Source: Thermoanaerobaculia bacterium (lineage in GTDB: Bacteria; Acidobacteriota; Thermoanaerobaculia; Gp7-AA8). Taken from it: a stretch of DNA of 64,000 nt. Below are positions 4,384-17,171 of this stretch, one piece after another. The stretch is from positions 24,345 through 88,344 of the forward strand of contig DASYJF010000145.1 in assembly GCA_035996815.1 (NCBI GenBank), in the 5' to 3' direction. The notes beneath the pieces were generated by a model. It was given only the letters and a program-made list of their open reading frames with translations. It was not told the DNA's origin and searched no databases. Position numbers and translations under genes: made by a program. The stretch's first letter is position 1; every line of letters starts with the position of its first letter.

Positions 4384-5553
4384 TCACTCTTTCATCGTCT
4401 CCGGATCCACGCCCAGACTCCGGCATAGATCGACGTACGCAAACGGCGAAATCTCCGACGGCTTGATCTCGCTGCGGCCGCCCCAGAAAACGTTCGTGTA
4501 CGACACCGGCATCCCGATCTCGGCGAGGTAGTCGTCGATGGCGGCCTTGTGCGCGAGCACCGCATCCTTCTCCGTTCCGTGCGCGACCGCCATGATGTTC
4601 ACGTTGCGGAACTCCGGCCCCCCCTCGCGCCAGTAGCAATGCGTGAGGATGTCGAAGCGGCCGATCTCGCGCCCCGCCTCGATCTCGCGTCCCGGCGGCA
4701 CGGCCCAGTGGAACAGCGCGTTGAAACGCGTCACGCGTTCGCCGGTCTGCAGCGGCTTCACGTGCTCGAGAAACGTCGAGAAGCGCCCGATGACCTTGCG
4801 CGCGTTGAGCGACTCCGCCACTTCGAAGAATTGCTCCAGCGGCACTCCCGCTTCGGCGGCGCGAGTACGCCAGAGATCGCGCGTGAACTCCTCCGGCTCG
4901 ACCTCTCTCTTCAACGCGGTCAGCACGCGCCAATCGAGATCGGTCAGCGTCGCCTTGGTCGTGTCCTTCTCCTCGGCCAGTGCATCCGATTTCGATCCCG
5001 GCTCCATCCCCTTGCGGCGGACGTGACCGACGCCGAGGGCGAAGATGCGGTTCGCGGGCATCACGCGGAAATGTTCGGCGCCGGTGAGGCGGCCGATCAA
5101 AGCGCAATGCTTCTCGATCGAATACCCCTGCGGCACTTTCACCGTCGTCCACAACCGGTAGTTCGATCCGGGCGTAGCGGCGTCGGTGGAACGGATGACC
5201 ACGTGGCCGGAGAACGGATCGTCGTCCACCATGTACGCGAACGCCTCGTTGAGCTTCTCCTCCGGATACTGCCACGCCACCAGCGCACCCTCGGCGAGAT
5301 TCGTCGCCATCAGCGTCTGCCTTACTCGACGAATGGTCCCAGCGACGAGCATCGCCCGGATGCGCTCCATGACCGTCTCCGCATCGACGCCCGACTGCTC
5401 CGCGATCGTCCCGATCGGATCGCGCACGAATCCCTGAATGCGATCCTCGGAAACGGCCAGGATCTTCGCGTTGACGGGATCGGTATGGGCGATGGGGAGG
5501 TCAGTAACCGTGGACATAACGCTTCGAAGATTATCATGCAGGCCGTTTGACAA
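4384..5553 (-). CDS. Tandem Lrp/AsnC-like (HTH + ligand-binding) two-module protein, AhbAB/NirDL-like architecture
   Basis: Two repeated modules, each with an HTH-like segment (…AKILAVSEDRIQGFVRDPIGTIAEQSGVDAETVMERI… and …LDWRVLTALKREVEPEEFTRDLWRTRAAEAGVPLEQF…). Family assignment is tentative. Confidence 0.4.
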   Translation of the reverse strand: MSNGLHDNLRSVMSTVTDLPIAHTDPVNAKILAVSEDRIQGFVRDPIGTIAEQSGVDAETVMERIRAMLVAGTIRRVRQTLMATNLAEGALVAWQYPEEKLNEAFAYMVDDDPFSGHVVIRSTDAATPGSNYRLWTTVKVPQGYSIEKHCALIGRLTGAEHFRVMPANRIFALGVGHVRRKGMEPGSKSDALAEEKDTTKATLTDLDWRVLTALKREVEPEEFTRDLWRTRAAEAGVPLEQFFEVAESLNARKVIGRFSTFLEHVKPLQTGERVTRFNALFHWAVPPGREIEAGREIGRFDILTHCYWREGGPEFRNVNIMAVAHGTEKDAVLAHKAAIDDYLAEIGMPVSYTNVFWGGRSEIKPSEISPFAYVDLCRSLGVDPETMKE

Positions 5554-5582
5554 CGCTTCGCGCGCTGCCTTACCCTCACCGC

Positions 5583-5665
5583 TCCTGGACTGATTTGCGG
5601 GGCCGCTTGCAACCAGGTTAAAAAAAGCTAAAGAGCCGGCAGTAGGCCGTTCGACTCCGACTGAA
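5583..5665 (+). ncRNA. Candidate SAM-II/SAH-class riboswitch aptamer in the metH leader
   Basis: Putative promoter TTGACA(5547)-17 nt-TACCCT(5571). Hairpin cctgg…ccagg whose loop contains GCTTGC, and a 3' tail AAAAAAGCTAAAGAGC able to pair with the loop (pseudoknot), as I remember the SAM-II architecture. metH is a classic SAM-II/SAH riboswitch target. Confidence 0.35.
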
Positions 5666-5699
5666 GCCCCGCAATTTCAAGCGGGGCTTTTTCTTTTCT
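5666..5699 (+). terminator. Intrinsic terminator/attenuator hairpin 11 nt before the metH start codon
   Basis: gccccgc-aatttcaa-gcggggc stem-loop followed by a tttttcttttct U-tract. Confidence 0.6.
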
Positions 5700-5710
5700 G
5701 GAGATTCCGA

Positions 5711-8700
5711 ATGCCACAACCCGACCGTACCGCCGAACTTCGCGAACTGCTCGACCGCCGCATCCTCATTCTCGACGGCGCGATGGGGACGATGATCCAG
5801 CGCTACCGGCTCGATGAAGCCGGCTATCGCGGAACACAGTTCGCGACGCATTCGCGCGATCTCAAAGGCGCCAACGACATCCTCTGTCTCACGAATCCGA
5901 AGATCGTCGAAGAGATCCATCGCCAATATCTCGACGCCGGCGCCGACATCATCGAGACCAACACGTTCAACGCGCAGGCGATCTCGTTGGCCGATTACGA
6001 CCTCGTCGAATACGCCTACGACATCAACCTCGCCGCCGCGCGGCTTGCACGCGCCGCGTGCGACGCGTACTCGACTGCGGACCGTCCGCGTTTCGTGGCC
6101 GGCTCGCTCGGGCCGACCAACCGCACGGCCTCGCTCTCGCCCGACGTCAACAACCCTGCGTTTCGCGGCGTGTCGTTCGACGAGCTGGTCGACGCCTACT
6201 ACGACCAGATTCGCGGCCTCGTCGACGGCGGCTCAGACATCCTCATGCCGGAGACGACGTTCGATACGCTCAACCTCAAGGCCGCGCTCTTCGCGATCGA
6301 AAAGTACTTCGCCGACACCGGCATCCGCCTGCCGATCATCGCCTCGATCACCATCACCGACGCCTCGGGACGCACGCTTTCCGGACAGACCGTCGAAGCG
6401 TGCTGGAACTCGATCTCGCACGCGCCGCTCCTCGCCACCGGTATCAACTGCGCCCTCGGCGCGAAGGAGATGCGCCCGCACATCGAAGAGCTGGCGTCGA
6501 TCGCGCCGGTCTACCTCAGTTGCTATCCGAACGCCGGCCTTCCGAACGCGCTCGGCGAGTACGACCAGACGCCCGACGAGATGGCCGCGCTGCTGCACGA
6601 ATACGCCGGCAACAGCTGGATCAACATCGTCGGCGGCTGTTGCGGCACGACGCCCGATTTCGTTCGCGCCATCGCCGAAACCGTGAAGAGCTTTCCGCCG
6701 CGGAAGCCGCCGGTCATCGAGAAGCATCTGCGGCTCAGCGGACTGGAAGCGCTCACCGTCACGCCGGAGTCGAACTTCATCATGGTCGGCGAGCGCACCA
6801 ACGTCACCGGCTCGCCGAAGTTCGCGCAGCTCATCAAAGCAGGCGACATCGAGCCGGCGCTGGCAATCGCCAAACAGCAGATCGACGGCGGCGCGAACAT
6901 CCTCGACGTCAACATGGACGAGGGACTGCTCGACTCTGAGAAAGTGATGACGCACTTTCTGCACCTTGTCGCTTCGGAGCCAGACATCGCCCGCGTCCCG
7001 ATCATGATCGACTCGTCGAAATGGACGGTGCTCGAAGCGGGACTGAAATGCACGCAGGGAAAATCAGTCGTCAATTCGATCTCGCTGAAAGAGGGCGAAG
7101 AGAAGTTTCGCGAGCAGGCCCGCCTCATCAAACGCTACGGCGCGGCGGTGATCGTGATGGCGTTCGACGAACAGGGCCAGGCTGATTCGATCGAGCGCAA
7201 AGTCGCAATCTGTTCGCGGGCGTACGCGATCCTCGTCGACGAAGTTGGTTTCGATCCGACCGACGTCATCTTCGATCCGAATGTCCTCACCGTCGCCACC
7301 GGAATCGAAGAGCACAACAACTACGGCGTCGCCTTCATCGAAGCCGTCCGCCAGCTGCACGAGCGTTTTCCGCTGGCCAGTTTCTCCGGCGGCATCAGCA
7401 ACGTCTCGTTCTCATTCCGCGGCAACAAGACCGTGCGCGAGGCCATGCACGCCGCGTTTCTCTACCACGCCATCAAAGCCGGCCTGACCATGGGAATCGT
7501 CAACGCCGGGCAACTCGCGATTTACGACGAGATTCCGCCGGAGCTGCGCGATCTCGTCGAAGACGTACTGCTGAATCGCCGTTCCGACGCCACCGAGCGT
7601 CTGCTCACGTACGCCGATTCGATCAAAGGCCAAGGCGCAACGACCGCGAAGGAAGCAGAAGCGTGGCGCAGCGGAACCATCGAAGAGCGGCTCTCACACT
7701 CGCTCGTCAAGGGAATCATCGAGCACCTCGATGACGACGTCGAAGAAGCGCGGCAGAAGTATCCAAGCGCTCTCTCGATCATCGAAGGGCCGCTGATGGA
7801 CGGCATGAACGTCGTCGGCAATCTCTTCGGCGCCGGCAAGATGTTTCTCCCGCAGGTCGTAAAGAGCGCGCGCGTCATGAAGAAGGCGGTCGCGTATCTG
7901 CTGCCGTTCATGGAAGCGGAGAAAGCGAAAGCCGGCGATCTCTCACAGCGCGGCAAAGTGCTGATGGCGACGGTGAAGGGCGACGTTCACGACATCGGCA
8001 AGAACATCGTCGGCGTCGTTCTCGGCTGCAACAACTACGAAGTCATCGACCTCGGCGTGATGGTTTCGGCCGACAAGATTCTCGACACCGCCATTGCCGA
8101 AAAGGCCGACATCATCGGCCTCTCCGGCCTGATCACGCCGTCGCTCGATGAGATGGTTCACGTGGCGCGCGAGATGGAACGCCGCAGCTTCACCGTCCCG
8201 ATGCTCATCGGCGGAGCCACCACTTCCAAATTGCACACCGCCGTGAAAATCGCGCCGCGCTATTCGCACGCGACCGTCCACGTGCTCGACGCCTCGCGCG
8301 CCGTCGGCGTGGTCAGCACGCTGCTCTCCGATCGCAAGGACGAATTCGTCCGCGAGCGCAACGCCGAGTACGAGCATCTCCGCGAAGCGCAGGCCAAACG
8401 TCAGGATGTGGTGAAGATCCTGCCGCTCGAAACCGCGCGCCGCCGCAAACCATCGCTCACCTTTTCTCCCGACCGTCCACCCTTCCTCGGCGTGCGCGTT
8501 CTCGATGACGTTCCACTCGAACGCATCGAGCCGTTCATCGACTGGAATCCGTTCTTTTCCGCGTGGGAACTGCGCGGGCGCTTCCCGCAGATCCTCGACG
8601 AGCCGCGCGCGAAAGAGCTGTACGAAGACGGCCAGCACCTGCTGCGCGAGATCATCGACAACCGCCTGATCCGCGCCACCGCCGTCTACGGTTTCTGGCC

Positions 8701-13179: not shown

Positions 13180-14543
13180 ATGGTCTTCAGGTCCAAAACG
13201 GATAGCGGCGAGATCAAGAAGCCGCAGCAGCAGAACTCGCGGGTTCCGCTGGTGATCACGATCGTGGCGCTGGCCGTGGTGGGGAGCGCCTACTACGTTT
13301 ATTACCGCCAGCACGCGGAGTACTACACCGGCCGGAATCTGCGCCTTCTCTCCATGCTCAGGTCGAAGGACGCGTGACGATGTTCTCGTCAGCCTGAAAG
13401 CTCAATCCGTTGGCGCGGGCACCTCCGGCAAGAAAATCGACGACATCTTCTCCACGCCGGGATTGAAGTTCGGACAATGTTCCGAAGAACTCCCGGCCGA
13501 GCTGCCGAAGCCGGGCCGCATCCAGATGCGGCGCGATGCCGTAGAAAGCGCGCGCGGTTGGAAAATGCGGCTGCGGGCGTATCTCGATCAACAGACGACA
13601 TGCGCGTCCGTCACGATCGACGATGTCGCTCGTCCGATCTTTACGCGCGACCTCGGCGCCGCCTTCGACGTGCTTCTCATAGCCAGGGAGGACGGCACCG
13701 TTCTGTACAGCATCCGTCCTCCTCCTGCGTCATCGACACTTCTCGGCAATCAAGATGAATGGATCGTGAAGCGGAAGAGCTCCCGCCCGTCGCGCCGATC
13801 AAATCAGCGGCGTCAATGACGGCCACGCTTCCGACCGCAGCGCCAGCCACAGATACTTCATCCGCGGACAAGAAATCCGCGAGCGACTCCTCAAGCAAAT
13901 CGGCCGTGATGACGGAACGCGACAACGGACCGCCGGTGCTGATCACCAATCTGAAGGCGCTGCAGAAACGAAAGGCCGGCTGGTTCTCGGGCTACGAGCC
14001 GGTCACTCCGGCATCGCTGACGATGGCCACCAGCGACATTACCGTGTCGCTCGGCGGCAGCGACTACGGGCTGTTTACGCAGCCCTACACCTACTCGCGA
14101 TTGCCGGCCAGCGTCCACGCCAGGAAGAGCAACGAGTGGGCGTCTGCGGATTGGTATCGGCATCGCGCTTTCGCTACGACGTCTTCGCCGTTTCGACGTC
14201 AATCGTCCTGATCGCAATCGCCATCGGCCTGCTGGCGCTTTGCTGCTGGCCGTATCTTCGGATCGCGCTCATTCATCCGAGTCAGCCTCTGGCAATCACC
14301 GACGTCGTACTTATCATCTTCTGCACCATCGTCGGCTCGGTCGTGATCACGCTGGCGCTGCTCGACGCGTTCGCCTACCGCGGCATCACGCAAACCGCTG
14401 ACGAACAACTGCAGAAGTTCGGCGACGCGGTGAACCGCGACTTCGCCCGCGACGTCAGCCGCGCCATGGAGACGTCCTCGCGGCAGCTCAACCAGAGGCC
14501 GGCGAAGTACGCCACGGCGCTGACCACAGGACTACGATCCTGA
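13180..14543 (+). pseudogene. Probable degraded sensor gene (TM – Cache-like periplasmic domain – TM – HAMP-like), broken into four frames and lacking an output domain
   Basis: Consecutive plus-strand ORFs in frames 1/2/1/3 (13180-13377, ~13376-13819, 13759-14211, 14136-14543). Together they read TM helix, …LLIAREDGTVLYS… and …ITVSLGGSDYGLFTQPY… (Cache-like), TM helix, HAMP-like segment, then stop. No kinase or MCP domain follows. Confidence 0.35.
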
Positions 14544-14616
14544 TGAAACTGGTCGGAGCATTCGCCGAAAAGCGCAGCGACGTGAACGCGTAGGGACGCG
14601 AAGGTGGGATCCGCCT

Positions 14617-14634
14617 GGCTCCGGCAGTAAGACG
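14617..14634. repeat. Distal att-like direct repeat of the tRNA-Asn 3' end (17/18 identical)
   Basis: Direct sequence comparison with 16583-16600. Confidence 0.65.
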
Positions 14635-14688
14635 AAGGACCCCTCACTTTGGTCACGCAACCCCGCGCGAGCAAAGAATGCCAAAAGA

Positions 14689-14925
14689 ATGGCAAAACAA
14701 CCGTATACTTCGACGACCATGGCGCGGCAGCCGAACCAGTTACCAACGGCGACCCTGACGGTGTCCACGACGCCGCAAGTGCTGCTGGAACTCGAACGCT
14801 TGGTTTCGACCGGCCATTTCGGAAAAAATACGGCGGATGCGGCCGAGAGAATCATCTCGACGTACTTGCATTCAGCGTTCGGAAGCGAAACTGCCAGCCC
14901 GAGAAACGCGACAAGCAACCGATAG
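14689..14925 (+). CDS. Small ribbon-helix-helix (CopG/Arc-like) putative regulator
   Basis: …TATLTVSTTPQVLLELERLVSTGHFGKNTADAAERIISTYL… fits the RHH beta-strand + two-helix pattern. Stop lies 17 nt before the next gene. Confidence 0.4.
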   Translation: MAKQPYTSTTMARQPNQLPTATLTVSTTPQVLLELERLVSTGHFGKNTADAAERIISTYLHSAFGSETASPRNATSNR

Positions 14926-14941
14926 GGGGTCCGGCACAGCG

Positions 14942-15691
14942 ATGCCCATCGACGATAAACGGTTATTGAAAAACGCTCCAATCGTCGAAGCGCTCATCGA
15001 TATTCGGGTAACGCCGGCGGACAGTTTCACTCAGACCCACCTGGAAGCTGTGAAGAGTCAGCTCGGCAAATTTTTTTCGTCCGTGGACGAACAAAAACAG
15101 GGTGAGCTGTTTTTTCAGATCGTCGAGGGCCGCGTCGCGGAGCCTCCGACGGTCGCCGACCGCGGCGTGACCGGTCTGCTGTTTCGGGCCACCGACCGTG
15201 AGGAGGCAGTGCAGGTTCAGGAAGGGGGCTTCGTATTCAGCAAACTCAGGCCTTACTCGAGCTGGGAAGACGTCTCCACTTCGGCTCGTCGGTACTGGGA
15301 GATTTACTCGTCTGCCATCCCGCTTAGGCAAGTGAATCGATTAGCAGTGCGATACATCAACCATTTTGTCGTACCGCGGCACAAGCAGATATCGGATTAC
15401 TTGGCGGCGCCGCCGGCCGTTCCGGAGGGCATCGAACCAGCGTCGCTGATGAACTCCCTATCGCGGTTGTTGCTTATTGGACCTGGAAATCTAGAAGCGA
15501 GACTTCAGCTGGCGTGTGACACAGCAGACTTCGGATCCAACGTGTTAATGGATATCGACTGCTTTCGCGCGGTGCAATTTGAGCCGTCCGCCGATACGTT
15601 CTGGCCGTCTCTGCAGGAACTTCGCGAGATGAAAAATCGTATCTTTTTCGGAAGCATCACCCGTTTTGCAGAAGAGGAGTTCAACAAATGA
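14942..15691 (+). CDS. TIGR04255-family-like hypothetical protein
   Basis: N-terminus …KNAPIVEALIDIRV… matches the conserved N-terminal signature I associate with TIGR04255. No catalytic motif identified. Start trimmed to MPIDDKRL. Confidence 0.5.
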   Translation: MPIDDKRLLKNAPIVEALIDIRVTPADSFTQTHLEAVKSQLGKFFSSVDEQKQGELFFQIVEGRVAEPPTVADRGVTGLLFRATDREEAVQVQEGGFVFSKLRPYSSWEDVSTSARRYWEIYSSAIPLRQVNRLAVRYINHFVVPRHKQISDYLAAPPAVPEGIEPASLMNSLSRLLLIGPGNLEARLQLACDTADFGSNVLMDIDCFRAVQFEPSADTFWPSLQELREMKNRIFFGSITRFAEEEFNK

Positions 15692-16188
15692 CTGCCGACA
15701 CCCCGTGGATCAATGTTGACCTGTTTGCCGGCGACTCGAGTACCGCGGTGGGAGTCGAGGCTCGATGCTTCGCGACCACAGAGCGCGAGATCATTTCGGA
15801 GTGGCTCGCGGCACCAATCACGGGCGCTCCCTTGCGCGACGGCCTTCGAGCGATCATGGAAGCGGCAAGTGAAACGCAGAGGACGAATTGGGACGGCAAC
15901 GGAGCGGCGCCTTTTAAACAGCGGGCATTACTCAACGCGGTACGGTTGCTGAAGCGACTTCCGGTAACCATGCCAGTCGATGATGTCTATGTTGATGCTG
16001 ATGGAGCCGTACTGCTTGAGTGGCAGACTTCGACCAAACGTTCCTTTACCGTAGCCGTCAACGAACATGGCGAACTGCACTTCGCCGGTGTGTTCGGGCT
16101 GAGCCGCCTTCGAGGCCGCGATATTTTTGTCGGCGACCGCGTACCTGAAAGCATCCGTCTTGGCATCCGCCGGGTGTTCGACGCGTGA
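15688..16188 (+). CDS. Hypothetical protein (166 aa), translationally coupled (ATGA overlap)
   Basis: ORF with a 4-nt overlap to the upstream gene. No recognisable motif. Confidence 0.5.
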   Translation: MTADTPWINVDLFAGDSSTAVGVEARCFATTEREIISEWLAAPITGAPLRDGLRAIMEAASETQRTNWDGNGAAPFKQRALLNAVRLLKRLPVTMPVDDVYVDADGAVLLEWQTSTKRSFTVAVNEHGELHFAGVFGLSRLRGRDIFVGDRVPESIRLGIRRVFDA

Positions 16189-16565
16189 CGATGTTTTCTG
16201 TCGTCGCCGCAGAATCTGCTGTTGCTCGGTTTCTCTTCAGCGGCCATCTGAAAGGAAGCCGCGTTCGCCCCAACGCTTTCATCCCGCCGGAACACGACCT
16301 TCGGCTGTCGGTGTGTGTTACGGACGACCTCACGACCCAGGACATTCACGCATGGGGCAAGCTGTACGCGTCGTCCCCTGATCGCGAAGCCAAAGGATTC
16401 GCGCTTCTTCACGTCTTTGATTTTCACGCGGAGGACCTCTCGGTCGAGCGCGACGACGACCCGCCGCGTCACGCAGAAGTCGCTGGTTGGCCCGCCGACA
16501 AAGAAGCTCGCCTCGATGTCGCGAAGCAACTCGTGCGTGCGATTGCGGAGATTCAGTTAGGTTGA
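16185..16565 (+). CDS. Hypothetical protein (126 aa), translationally coupled (GTGA overlap)
   Basis: 4-nt overlap with the upstream gene. Ends 18 nt from the tRNA 3' end. No recognisable motif. Confidence 0.45.
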   Translation: MTMFSVVAAESAVARFLFSGHLKGSRVRPNAFIPPEHDLRLSVCVTDDLTTQDIHAWGKLYASSPDREAKGFALLHVFDFHAEDLSVERDDDPPRHAEVAGWPADKEARLDVAKQLVRAIAEIQLG

Positions 16566-16582
16566 TTCGGCGCTTGGCGCCT

Positions 16583-16658
16583 TGGCTCCGGCAGTAGGAC
16601 TCGAACCTACGACCCACGGATTAACAGTCCGTTGCTCTACCAACTGAGCTATGCCGGA
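16583..16658 (-). tRNA. tRNA-Asn (anticodon GTT)
   Basis: Reverse complement gives TCCGGCATAGCTCAGTTGGTAGAGCAACGGACTGTTAATCCGTGGGTCGTAGGTTCGAGTCCTACTGCCGGAGCCA. The cloverleaf folds, the anticodon loop is CTGTTAA, and CCA is encoded. Confidence 0.9.
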
Positions 16659-16709: not shown

Positions 16710-17171
16710 TCAACGTGGGGGCAAACCGAGGGGGGTGGCAGTGTATTTCGCGAGGGCGGAGGTCAGGCGCGGGAGCAAATCGGCGAGTTCGGAGTACTCG
16801 ATCAGGTCGATTTCGCGGTCGCCGGCGACCATGGCCGTGCAGCGCGATGTGTGCGCCGGCCGGTAGAGGCAGATGACCGGGATTCCGTAGCGGTAGCGGG
16901 CGGTGGCGATCTCGTATCCGACTCCCGTCGACGGCATCGACGCTTCGGCCACGAGCACGTCGGCGGCGGCGATCCAGGCGAGGTCGCGGTCGAAGATCGG
17001 GCAGGAGTCGAGCGCCTCGCCGGATGCGGTCACATGTTCCGCGGCTACTGCGCCGGCGAGCACGTGATGGCCTGCGGCTTCGAGTGCCGCGATGATCTCG
17101 CGATACAGCGCGACGTCGCCGCGGCCTCCGCTGATTGCGCCGGCGAAGTAGATCGTTCTTTTGACTTTCAT
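16710..17171 (-). CDS. 2'-deoxynucleoside 5'-phosphate N-hydrolase (DNPH1/Rcl-like; nucleoside 2-deoxyribosyltransferase superfamily)
   Basis: TIYFAGAISGGRGD…LYREIIAAL…DRDLAWIAAADVLVAEASMPSTGVGYEIATA…ICLYRP closely parallels the DNPH1 sequence as I recall it. Confidence 0.65.
   Translation of the reverse strand: MKVKRTIYFAGAISGGRGDVALYREIIAALEAAGHHVLAGAVAAEHVTASGEALDSCPIFDRDLAWIAAADVLVAEASMPSTGVGYEIATARYRYGIPVICLYRPAHTSRCTAMVAGDREIDLIEYSELADLLPRLTSALAKYTATPLGLPPR

Follow-up and report, generated by a model that had tools for sequence, protein, structure and literature searches.

We analyzed a 64-kb stretch of DNA (the window) from a Thermoanaerobaculia (Acidobacteriota) metagenome-assembled genome, in which a compact four-gene islet lies between an intact tRNA-Asn gene and a partial copy of that gene's 3′ end. 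The tRNA-Asn(GTT), the sole tRNA called in the window (ARAGORN), occupies 16583-16658 on the minus strand, and its 3′-terminal 18 nt, including the encoded CCA, form the proximal att core (16583-16600; plus-strand TGGCTCCGGCAGTAGGAC). A distal att-like copy at 14616-14633 matches this core at 17 of 18 positions; host DNA adjoins it on the left side, island DNA on the right. The 1,949 bp enclosed between the two copies (14634-16582, plus strand) have no counterpart in close relatives. An earlier note on this DNA had described the repeat, correctly apart from coordinates that were off by one (14617-14634), and had allowed that it might be a common genomic motif; however, the core occurs only twice in the 64 kb at up to three mismatches, where shuffled sequences lead one to expect 0.02 copies, and the repeat is therefore not a chance match.

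The island has a GC content of 0.576 versus 0.62-0.64 in its flanks, which places it in the lowest 0.5% of equal-sized segments of the window. Between the repeats lie four co-oriented open reading frames (ORFs) of 78, 249, 166, and 126 aa, here called genes 1 to 4, with an ATGA overlap between genes 2 and 3 and a GTGA overlap between genes 3 and 4; the four-nucleotide overlaps that the earlier note had ascribed to the set as a whole do not extend to genes 1 and 2, which are 16 nt apart. Gene 4 stops 17 nt before the att core, and within these few bases there is a short GC hairpin (GGCGC-TTG-GCGCC; 16569-16581, plus strand) which, as read from the sequence, could be a terminator or a core-type site for a recombinase; a similar palindrome is also present in the related locus L001 (loci gathered for comparison bear L numbers). 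Pfam yielded no match for any of the four proteins, in line with the earlier statement that the bracketed DNA holds no integrase, transposase, or phage structural gene. The feature is a cleanly delimited, integrase-less islet that carries an uncharacterized, widespread three-gene module (genes 2-4, the trio) together with a putative regulator (gene 1).

Insertion at the 3′ end of tRNA-Asn

Sixty related loci were fetched using the housekeeping gene beside the tRNA (nucleoside 2-deoxyribosyltransferase-like) as an anchor. The tRNA-Asn adjoins this anchor in ~50 of the 60, and homologues of genes 1-4 were found in none of these. In L091, L093, and L099, the 18-nt core is present once, this copy aligning with each of the two repeats of the window while the 1,949 bp between them are absent, such that in the closest empty-site relative (L091, anchor protein 94% identical) it is 14634-16582 that is missing. 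The junctions are precise to the base, running from host flank through 18-nt core, island, and second 18-nt core into the remainder of the tRNA, and no cassette remnants were seen at the empty sites of relatives. Because the three empty sites align base-precisely, the insertion is established: the island was acquired horizontally at the tRNA-Asn 3′ end by site-specific recombination in the 18-bp core, as had been proposed earlier from the repeat, and the empty site that was to be sought at the tRNA-Asn of relatives does exist.

At this site, the cassette is limited to a narrow sub-lineage comprising the window, L001/L002, and L003. Synonymous divergence between the window and L001, though based on small counts, is 0.13-0.16 in the cassette (14942-16188) versus 0.29 in the adjacent host gene (16710-17171), and identity is 85% in the upstream flank versus 93% across the cassette and downstream flank. 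The lower divergence of the cassette hints at later acquisition or at exchange by recombination. Separately, the dCache-type sensor gene upstream of the islet (13180-14590) is a pseudogene specific to the window, with pieces in frames 3, 2, 1, 3, 2, and 1 and with residues ~466-1478 (~3 kb) deleted; the gene is intact in L001 (1,494 aa), and the ~3 kb lost here are still present in L091. Because L001 has both the cassette and an intact dCache gene, the decay of this gene is independent of the insertion, and the pseudogene could be an assembly artefact.

Islets at the same and at other t(m)RNA genes

The same core encloses other DNA in sister genomes. In L101, L108, and L129, a second copy of the 18-nt core (exact in the first two, with one mismatch in the third) lies 1.7-2.7 kb beyond tRNA-Asn, and the islets so delimited carry unrelated cargo and no integrase. 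Two of them hold complete Type II restriction-modification (R-M) systems, namely Vsr, a C5 DNA methylase, and a NaeI-family endonuclease in L101 (7581-10170), and an N4/N6 methylase with a BamHI-family endonuclease in L108 (7578-9275), while the L129 islet (5168-7857) encodes a TIG-domain protein, a membrane protein, and a pseudopilin-like protein. The distal tRNA-like copies of these sister islets measure 30 to ~43 nt versus 18 nt in the window, with no arm sequence in common. More broadly, siblings differ greatly in what lies between the anchor gene and the dCache gene: this slot is hypervariable, holding numerous small inserts of different kinds but no integrase. Small cassettes without a recognizable second repeat occupy it in L098 (+254 to +1182 after the tRNA), L114 and L145 (+46 to +1653), L100 (+63 to +1233), L110, and L146; judged by N-terminal motifs only, cargo in these siblings includes a ribbon-helix-helix (RHH)-like protein of 132 aa with a NUDIX-like protein of 178 aa, an RHH-like protein of 93 aa with a DUF3800-like protein of 163 aa, a number of small Xre-like genes, and a nuclease resembling Uma2.

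A crude screen detected no tyrosine-recombinase motif within 4.5 kb of the site in ~20 siblings, nor in the 64-kb window. The four cassette proteins gave no recombinase match in Pfam, NCBIfam, or PHROG, and the products of genes 2-4 showed no likeness to tyrosine, serine, DDE, HUH, or Cas1 recombinases by family search, with the folds of genes 2 and 3 likewise dissimilar. Since the same scar surrounds R-M cargo without the trio, islets of this kind can form in its absence, and we rejected a cassette-encoded integrase as the main explanation; integration would then have been supplied in trans, or the integrase would since have been lost. The earlier description of the islet as integrase-less, and either mobilized in trans or a remnant, fits this pattern of one core bracketing unrelated, integrase-less islets. 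The predicted junction of the excised circle reads ...GGCGCCT-TGGCTCCGGCAGTARGAC-GAAGGACCCC..., and the core to be expected in the attP of a matching integrase is GTCCTACTGCCGGAGCCA.

In three other genomes, integrase-less islets of 2-2.5 kb carry nothing but the trio and lie at different t(m)RNA genes, i.e., tRNA genes and the transfer-messenger RNA (tmRNA) gene. One lies at the 3′ end of tmRNA in L010 (perfect 25-nt repeat, 47 nt from the gene 4 stop to the att core), another at tRNA-Leu in L021 (perfect 35-nt repeat, the distal copy extending into ~60 nt of imperfect tRNA-like sequence), and a third at tRNA-Val in L007 (~27-nt repeat). The imperfect extension in L021 indicates an element-borne attP pattern rather than a target-site duplication, and duplication of the casposon or transposon kind was rejected for these islets because the repeats are of unequal length (18, 25, ~27, and 35 nt, with 30-43 nt for the sister islets) and distal copies carry imperfect extensions. 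Taken over all loci, the density of t(m)RNA genes is 3.9-fold higher at up to 1.5 kb from the cassette than further out (12 versus 3.1 expected, P ~1e-4), and 11 of these 12 face the cassette with their 3′ end (p 0.003). Reverse-complement controls for the repeats yielded matches of at most 13 nt, except for one of 29 nt at L054, which we read as a palindromic, REP-like sequence.

Two further copies have flanking repeats of 75-110 nt that are imperfect and lie at non-tRNA sites. In L028 (5553-5713 and 7788-7948), a ~75-nt imperfect intergenic direct repeat with a 21-nt perfect core surrounds the trio, and no tRNA or Rfam family was called in the repeat region. In L085 (2140-2250 and 4650-4780), the trio follows an MNT-type nucleotidyltransferase gene (recognized by motif only), and ~110 nt of the 5′ end of this gene are repeated imperfectly downstream of the trio, again with a 21-nt perfect core; from its sequence, this repeat may be an att site in a protein gene or a rearrangement between two MNT loci.

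That the trio is the only cargo at tRNA-Asn, tRNA-Val, tRNA-Leu, and tmRNA, as well as in the two non-tRNA islets, and that t(m)RNA genes are both enriched near the cassette and oriented towards it, might be taken to mean that the element moves itself, with one of its three proteins (e.g., gene 2) acting as a site-specific recombinase of a new kind, directed at t(m)RNA 3′ ends. The saddle-shaped fold predicted for gene 2 (see below) does serve DNA binding elsewhere, and the protein has many invariant charged residues. However, such self-mobility appears very improbable: the same 18-nt scar is found at the same tRNA-Asn around R-M cargo that lacks the trio, the recombinase families named above are not resembled in sequence or, for genes 2 and 3, in fold, the target genes differ among copies despite similar gene 2 proteins while most copies have no repeats at all, and the variable repeat lengths with imperfect extensions fit recombination of attP with attB rather than a fixed duplication.

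A different account of the spread would dispense with repeated integration, the cassette passing between related genomes by homologous recombination through the conserved flanking genes and the 18-nt repeat being a relic of one ancient event, without a part in the process today. The hypervariable, integrase-free slot among siblings is compatible with this, as are the distal repeat of L001, which has already decayed to 15 of 18 positions, and the cassette's synonymous divergence below that of the flanking gene, which would suit later exchange. Yet it fails to account for the islets that, independently and in other phyla, are flanked by repeats at t(m)RNA genes other than this one, or for the perfect repeats of 18-43 nt that enclose varied cargo at this very site. 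We hold it to be quite unlikely as the whole story, and it concerns how the cassette spreads rather than what it does, so that it is compatible with the functional explanation that we favor below.

The trio and its upstream gene

Genes 2, 3, and 4 occur together and in this order in 73 of the 85 loci surveyed with local hidden Markov models (HMMs), most of the exceptions appearing, from their coordinates, to sit at contig ends, and the ATGA overlap of genes 2 and 3 recurs in almost every locus. Gene 2 has hundreds of relatives. With one genome scanned for each species, relatives numbered 418 among 185,579 species, distributed sporadically across Acidobacteriota, Chloroflexota, Desulfobacterota, Planctomycetota, Gemmatimonadota, Nitrospirota, Proteobacteria, and further phyla, and an exhaustive search with gene 3 returned 2,054 clusters at 50% identity (E up to 1e-3). 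A word-indexed homologue search had under-reported genes 3 and 4 (2 and 4 matches, respectively), and these counts were corrected by the local HMMs and the exhaustive search. Ratios of nonsynonymous to synonymous divergence (dN/dS) between the window and L001 are 0.09 for gene 2 and 0.15 for gene 3. The trio is a widespread conserved module, not a one-off, and its genes are kept under purifying selection.

Gene 2 (14942-15691, plus strand; 249 aa) belongs to the TIGR04255 family, as its N-terminus had suggested earlier: the profile is matched over its full length (positions 2-252 of 252) at 116.3 bits (cutoff 30; E 1.9e-33), which passes the curated NCBIfam threshold. We found no published paper that mentions TIGR04255. 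The AlphaFold model (predicted local distance difference test, pLDDT, 92.5) has a duplicated beta-alpha-beta4-alpha arrangement that forms a saddle like that of TATA-binding protein (TBP), and the fold also resembles guanidino kinases, AdoMet decarboxylase, and Glu-Cys ligase. The alignment has thirteen invariant columns, invariant residues including E16, D20, R22, R133, R137, N140, R175, D204, D206, and K231, and the strands bear many conserved Arg, Asp, and Glu residues, which suggests that the sheet may be ligand-binding or catalytic. On the Crinalium plasmid pCRI9333.03 (L152, 5001-6831), a TIGR04255 gene is followed, after a 4-nt overlap, by genes of 182 and 171 aa that match neither the gene 3 nor the gene 4 profile, so the TIGR04255 "head" also pairs with other partners.

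Gene 3 (15688-16188, plus strand; 166 aa), which starts within the ATGA overlap with gene 2, has a helical N-terminal half, after which come the motif W-D-G-Y-G-A and an alpha+beta domain of five strands, and its AlphaFold model (pLDDT 92.5) resembles in fold the TriTu immunity protein and chaperones of type III secretion systems. Gene 4 (16185-16565, plus strand) encodes 126 aa from the GTG at 16185, or 124 aa if translation begins at the ATG at 16193, and its family has an invariant His96 and Trp102 within a PPRHAxIxGWPxxK motif; it is always accompanied by a gene-3-type domain. Searches of Pfam, PHROGs, and NCBIfam with genes 1, 3, and 4 returned nothing usable, Pfam gave no match for 59 relatives of gene 4 and 100 of gene 3, and sequence-profile searches of the PDB with genes 1-4 gave no significant match. 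Known toxin or antitoxin families were likewise not matched by the cassette in Pfam, NCBIfam, PADLOC, or PHROGs.

The PADLOC comparison that had been suggested earlier gave weak matches of genes 3 and 4 to the two components of the candidate system PDC-M32, and no PDC-M32A match for gene 2. In the window, gene 3 aligns with positions 271-336 of the 375 of PDC-M32A (E 1e-3) and gene 4 with positions 15-111 of the 123 of PDC-M32B (E 9e-4); among relatives, PDC-M32A is matched by 46 of 75 gene 3 proteins (best E 1.8e-6) and PDC-M32B by 8 of 59 gene 4 proteins (best E 1.1e-6). Confident full-length matches to both models in adjacent genes, which would mark members of PDC-M32, were not found, and at the level of sequence genes 3 and 4 are distant homologues of PDC-M32A/B domains rather than members of that system. 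The only paper in which we found PDC-M32 lists a PADLOC match in Sinorhizobium prophages and has no functional data (PMC12429752). In L153 and L154, longer proteins that end in a gene-3-type domain precede a gene 4 homologue (E 4e-45 and 2e-41) and a TIGR04255 gene is absent; these pairs with other heads indicate that the conserved core is the gene-3 domain plus gene 4 and that the head is exchangeable. Fusion of genes 2 and 3 as the origin of PDC-M32A was considered and rejected, since the longer gene-3-domain proteins have no TIGR04255 match.

Upstream of the trio, a region conserved in the window, L001, L004, and L010 (14676-14711, plus strand) contains an inverted repeat, TGCCA-N6-TGGCA (14679-14694), and a -10-like TATACT (14704-14709); it has no match to the sigma-70 consensus, and L008 and L011 have different palindromes at the position of the inverted repeat. 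We infer that this region is the promoter and operator of the operon. Gene 1 (14719-14925, plus strand) encodes a small basic protein of 68 aa, or 78 aa if it begins at 14689, and the start at 14719 is the more likely one because homologue conservation places the TATACT box inside the longer ORF. The protein had been called an RHH-type repressor, for which we obtained no HMM or PDB support (no Pfam match at E up to 1, and no PDB sequence match with a nine-sequence profile); the pointers to RHH are its beta-alpha-alpha residue pattern and the upstream palindromes, and we regard it as a putative autoregulator. Gene 1 was detected only in the 10 closest of the 85 loci, and it is dispensable because it is truncated in L001 (6529-6735; in-frame TAA at codon 8, genes 2-4 intact) and absent in most distant loci and in L007 (4478-5000), where the promoter-like sequence is left together with a ACACGGACAGA tandem repeat.

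Some further copies may be placed on record. In another Thermoanaerobaculia genome (L008/L012; 3153-3545 and 2615-3169), the four-gene cassette lies ~1.2 kb from a Gp49 (HigB-like) gene paired with a helix-turn-helix gene, amid several small ORFs without assignment. The cassette of L086 had no match in E. coli genomes. At the end of a record named "Ralstonia phage YO139_2" (L151; ON170239.1, 31529-36642; UNVERIFIED_ORG) stand a TIGR04255 gene and a homologue of gene 3, and the genes downstream look, by motif only, like PAAR and DUF4123 genes of type VI secretion, so that host DNA beyond the prophage is probable. Phage cargo was rejected as a description of the module, this sole phage record being probably host flank and relatives on viral contigs being few; a defense-island context was rejected on account of the immediate neighbors in 80 loci (see below).

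A candidate conflict module and its relation to known systems

The explanation we favor, with about even confidence, is that the cassette is a toxin-antitoxin-like conflict module that serves anti-phage defense and/or addiction. Pointers in this direction are the R-M systems in the same slot, the kinship with PDC-M32, the sporadic spread, the conservation of the trio, and the immunity- or chaperone-like fold of gene 3; a toxin-antitoxin-like arrangement is the most likely one because of the core formed by the gene-3 domain and gene 4, the exchangeable head, and the R-M occupants of the slot. Support for a defense or addiction function, which the earlier note had put forward as a candidate, is circumstantial.

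The islet entered the tRNA-Asn 3′ end by conservative site-specific recombination, which kept the tRNA intact and left a partial copy at the far end; under this explanation, an integrase encoded elsewhere or since lost probably acted in trans. It may thus be a minimal element that resembles a satellite or a cis-mobilizable element (CIME). Its cargo would form one operon, in which gene 1, dispensable and probably regulating itself, precedes three genes coupled in translation. Judging from folds and conserved residues, gene 4, with its invariant His and Trp, is a putative effector, the C-terminal domain of gene 3 a putative neutralizer or adaptor, and the TIGR04255 protein of gene 2 an exchangeable head that could work on its conserved beta-sheet face as a signal sensor or as an enzyme.

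Several observations weigh against the favored explanation. On the side of mobility, the crude motif screen of siblings and window did not reveal a trans-acting integrase, the predicted excised-circle junction was not found in viral contigs, and ~85% of cassette copies have neither a tRNA nor a flanking repeat. The module is rare on mobile DNA (a single one among 50,697 phage records, 3 among 72,556 records of plasmids, and 5 among 2.9 million viral contigs, where the relatives mostly sit no more than a few kb from an end of the contig), and its immediate neighbors in 80 loci are ordinary housekeeping genes, not defense islands or mobile elements. On the side of function, the PADLOC matches are weak (best E ~1e-6, ~1e-3 in the window) and cover part of PDC-M32A, PDC-M32 itself being an unvalidated candidate; gene 4 received no family assignment (Pfam on the 59 relatives, PDB profile search); and the fold of gene 2 can be read either as that of a TBP-like binder or as that of an enzyme resembling guanidino kinases.

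Some of these points would also suit a decayed remnant, in which a larger, integrase-bearing island at tRNA-Asn shrank to an operon with an accessory physiological, non-conflict role, be it in stress response, small-molecule metabolism, or regulation. The housekeeping neighbors, the resemblance of the gene 2 fold to small-molecule enzymes, and the majority of copies that lack repeats and look like settled chromosomal genes all speak for it, and the published route to CIMEs is that integration genes are lost while attL and attR are kept (PMC5704250). However, the islets are very compact, with the 17 nt here and the 47 nt in L010 after the gene 4 stop and no integrase pseudogene fragments; the same cargo at four t(m)RNA genes would require identical trimming four times; the perfect 25- and 35-nt repeats argue for recent events; and the two R-M occupants of the slot, like the PDC-M32 kinship, point to conflict biology. 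We consider a decayed remnant unlikely, though not to be dismissed lightly.

A bolder form of the conflict-module explanation, in which we place only tentative belief, about as much as in the decayed remnant, holds that the trio is a new, widespread defense/addiction family with an architecture sister to PDC-M32, its exchangeable head, a sensor or an enzyme, sitting on a conserved pair of adaptor and effector, and that att-flanked, integrase-less islets of 1.7-2.7 kb form a class of their own, minimal cassettes inserted and moved in trans by t(m)RNA-targeting integrases, in an economy like that of integrons. Its basis is that one tRNA-Asn core brackets unrelated cargoes, at least four in number, and that the trio is found at tRNA-Val, tRNA-Leu, and tmRNA. 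If the trio does act as a defense or addiction system, it would be a new family whose folds are so far without precedent in such a role, and its function would for the first time place TIGR04255 and PDC-M32, both orphan families, in a functional context. Independently of this, the islets are of interest in themselves: compact cargoes, R-M systems included, between identical tRNA-derived repeats suggest that small conflict modules may travel as att-flanked cassettes that borrow an integrase, and genomic-island finders that need an integrase would miss such a route of defense-gene exchange.

Compared with known elements, the islet is closest in outline to CIMEs, att-flanked elements without integration and transfer genes (PMC5704250), since it has attL- and attR-like repeats at a tRNA 3′ end and no integrase or transfer genes. 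CIMEs are decay products of ICEs (integrative and conjugative elements) or IMEs (integrative and mobilizable elements), occur mainly in Firmicutes, and are mobilized when a related ICE integrates alongside (PMC5704250), whereas here no trace of an ICE or IME is seen, the islets measure only 1.7-2.7 kb, far less than the CIMEs described, and several unrelated cargoes in sister genomes have the same core. With tRNA-integrated islands, prophages, and tycheposon-type islands (bioRxiv 10.1101/2020.12.28.424599), it has in common the t(m)RNA 3′ end, the distal partial tRNA copy, and the reuse of the site, and the cargo of such elements is often defense-related. Those elements, however, carry their own tyrosine recombinase beside the tRNA, while the islet and its sisters have none, with no fragmented one visible either; of the classical signs of a tRNA island, the repeats and the empty site are present here and the element-encoded integrase is not.

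As for cargo, PDC-M32 (PDC-M32A, 375 aa, and PDC-M32B, 123 aa) is likewise an adjacent, co-oriented pair, with gene 4 spanning nearly the whole PDC-M32B profile, although the similarity to PDC-M32A covers only ~65 residues and the head is here a separate TIGR04255 protein. Compact Type II R-M modules have no counterpart here in terms of methyltransferase or nuclease homology, yet they occupy the same att-flanked slot in L101 and L108 and are similarly small, tightly organized as operons, sporadic, and low in GC. Finally, though the cassette has no homology to a known toxin, antitoxin, or SecB-like chaperone, it resembles toxin-antitoxin-chaperone systems and toxin-immunity pairs in its small coupled genes, its small upstream gene for a putative DNA-binding-like regulator, and the fold of gene 3.

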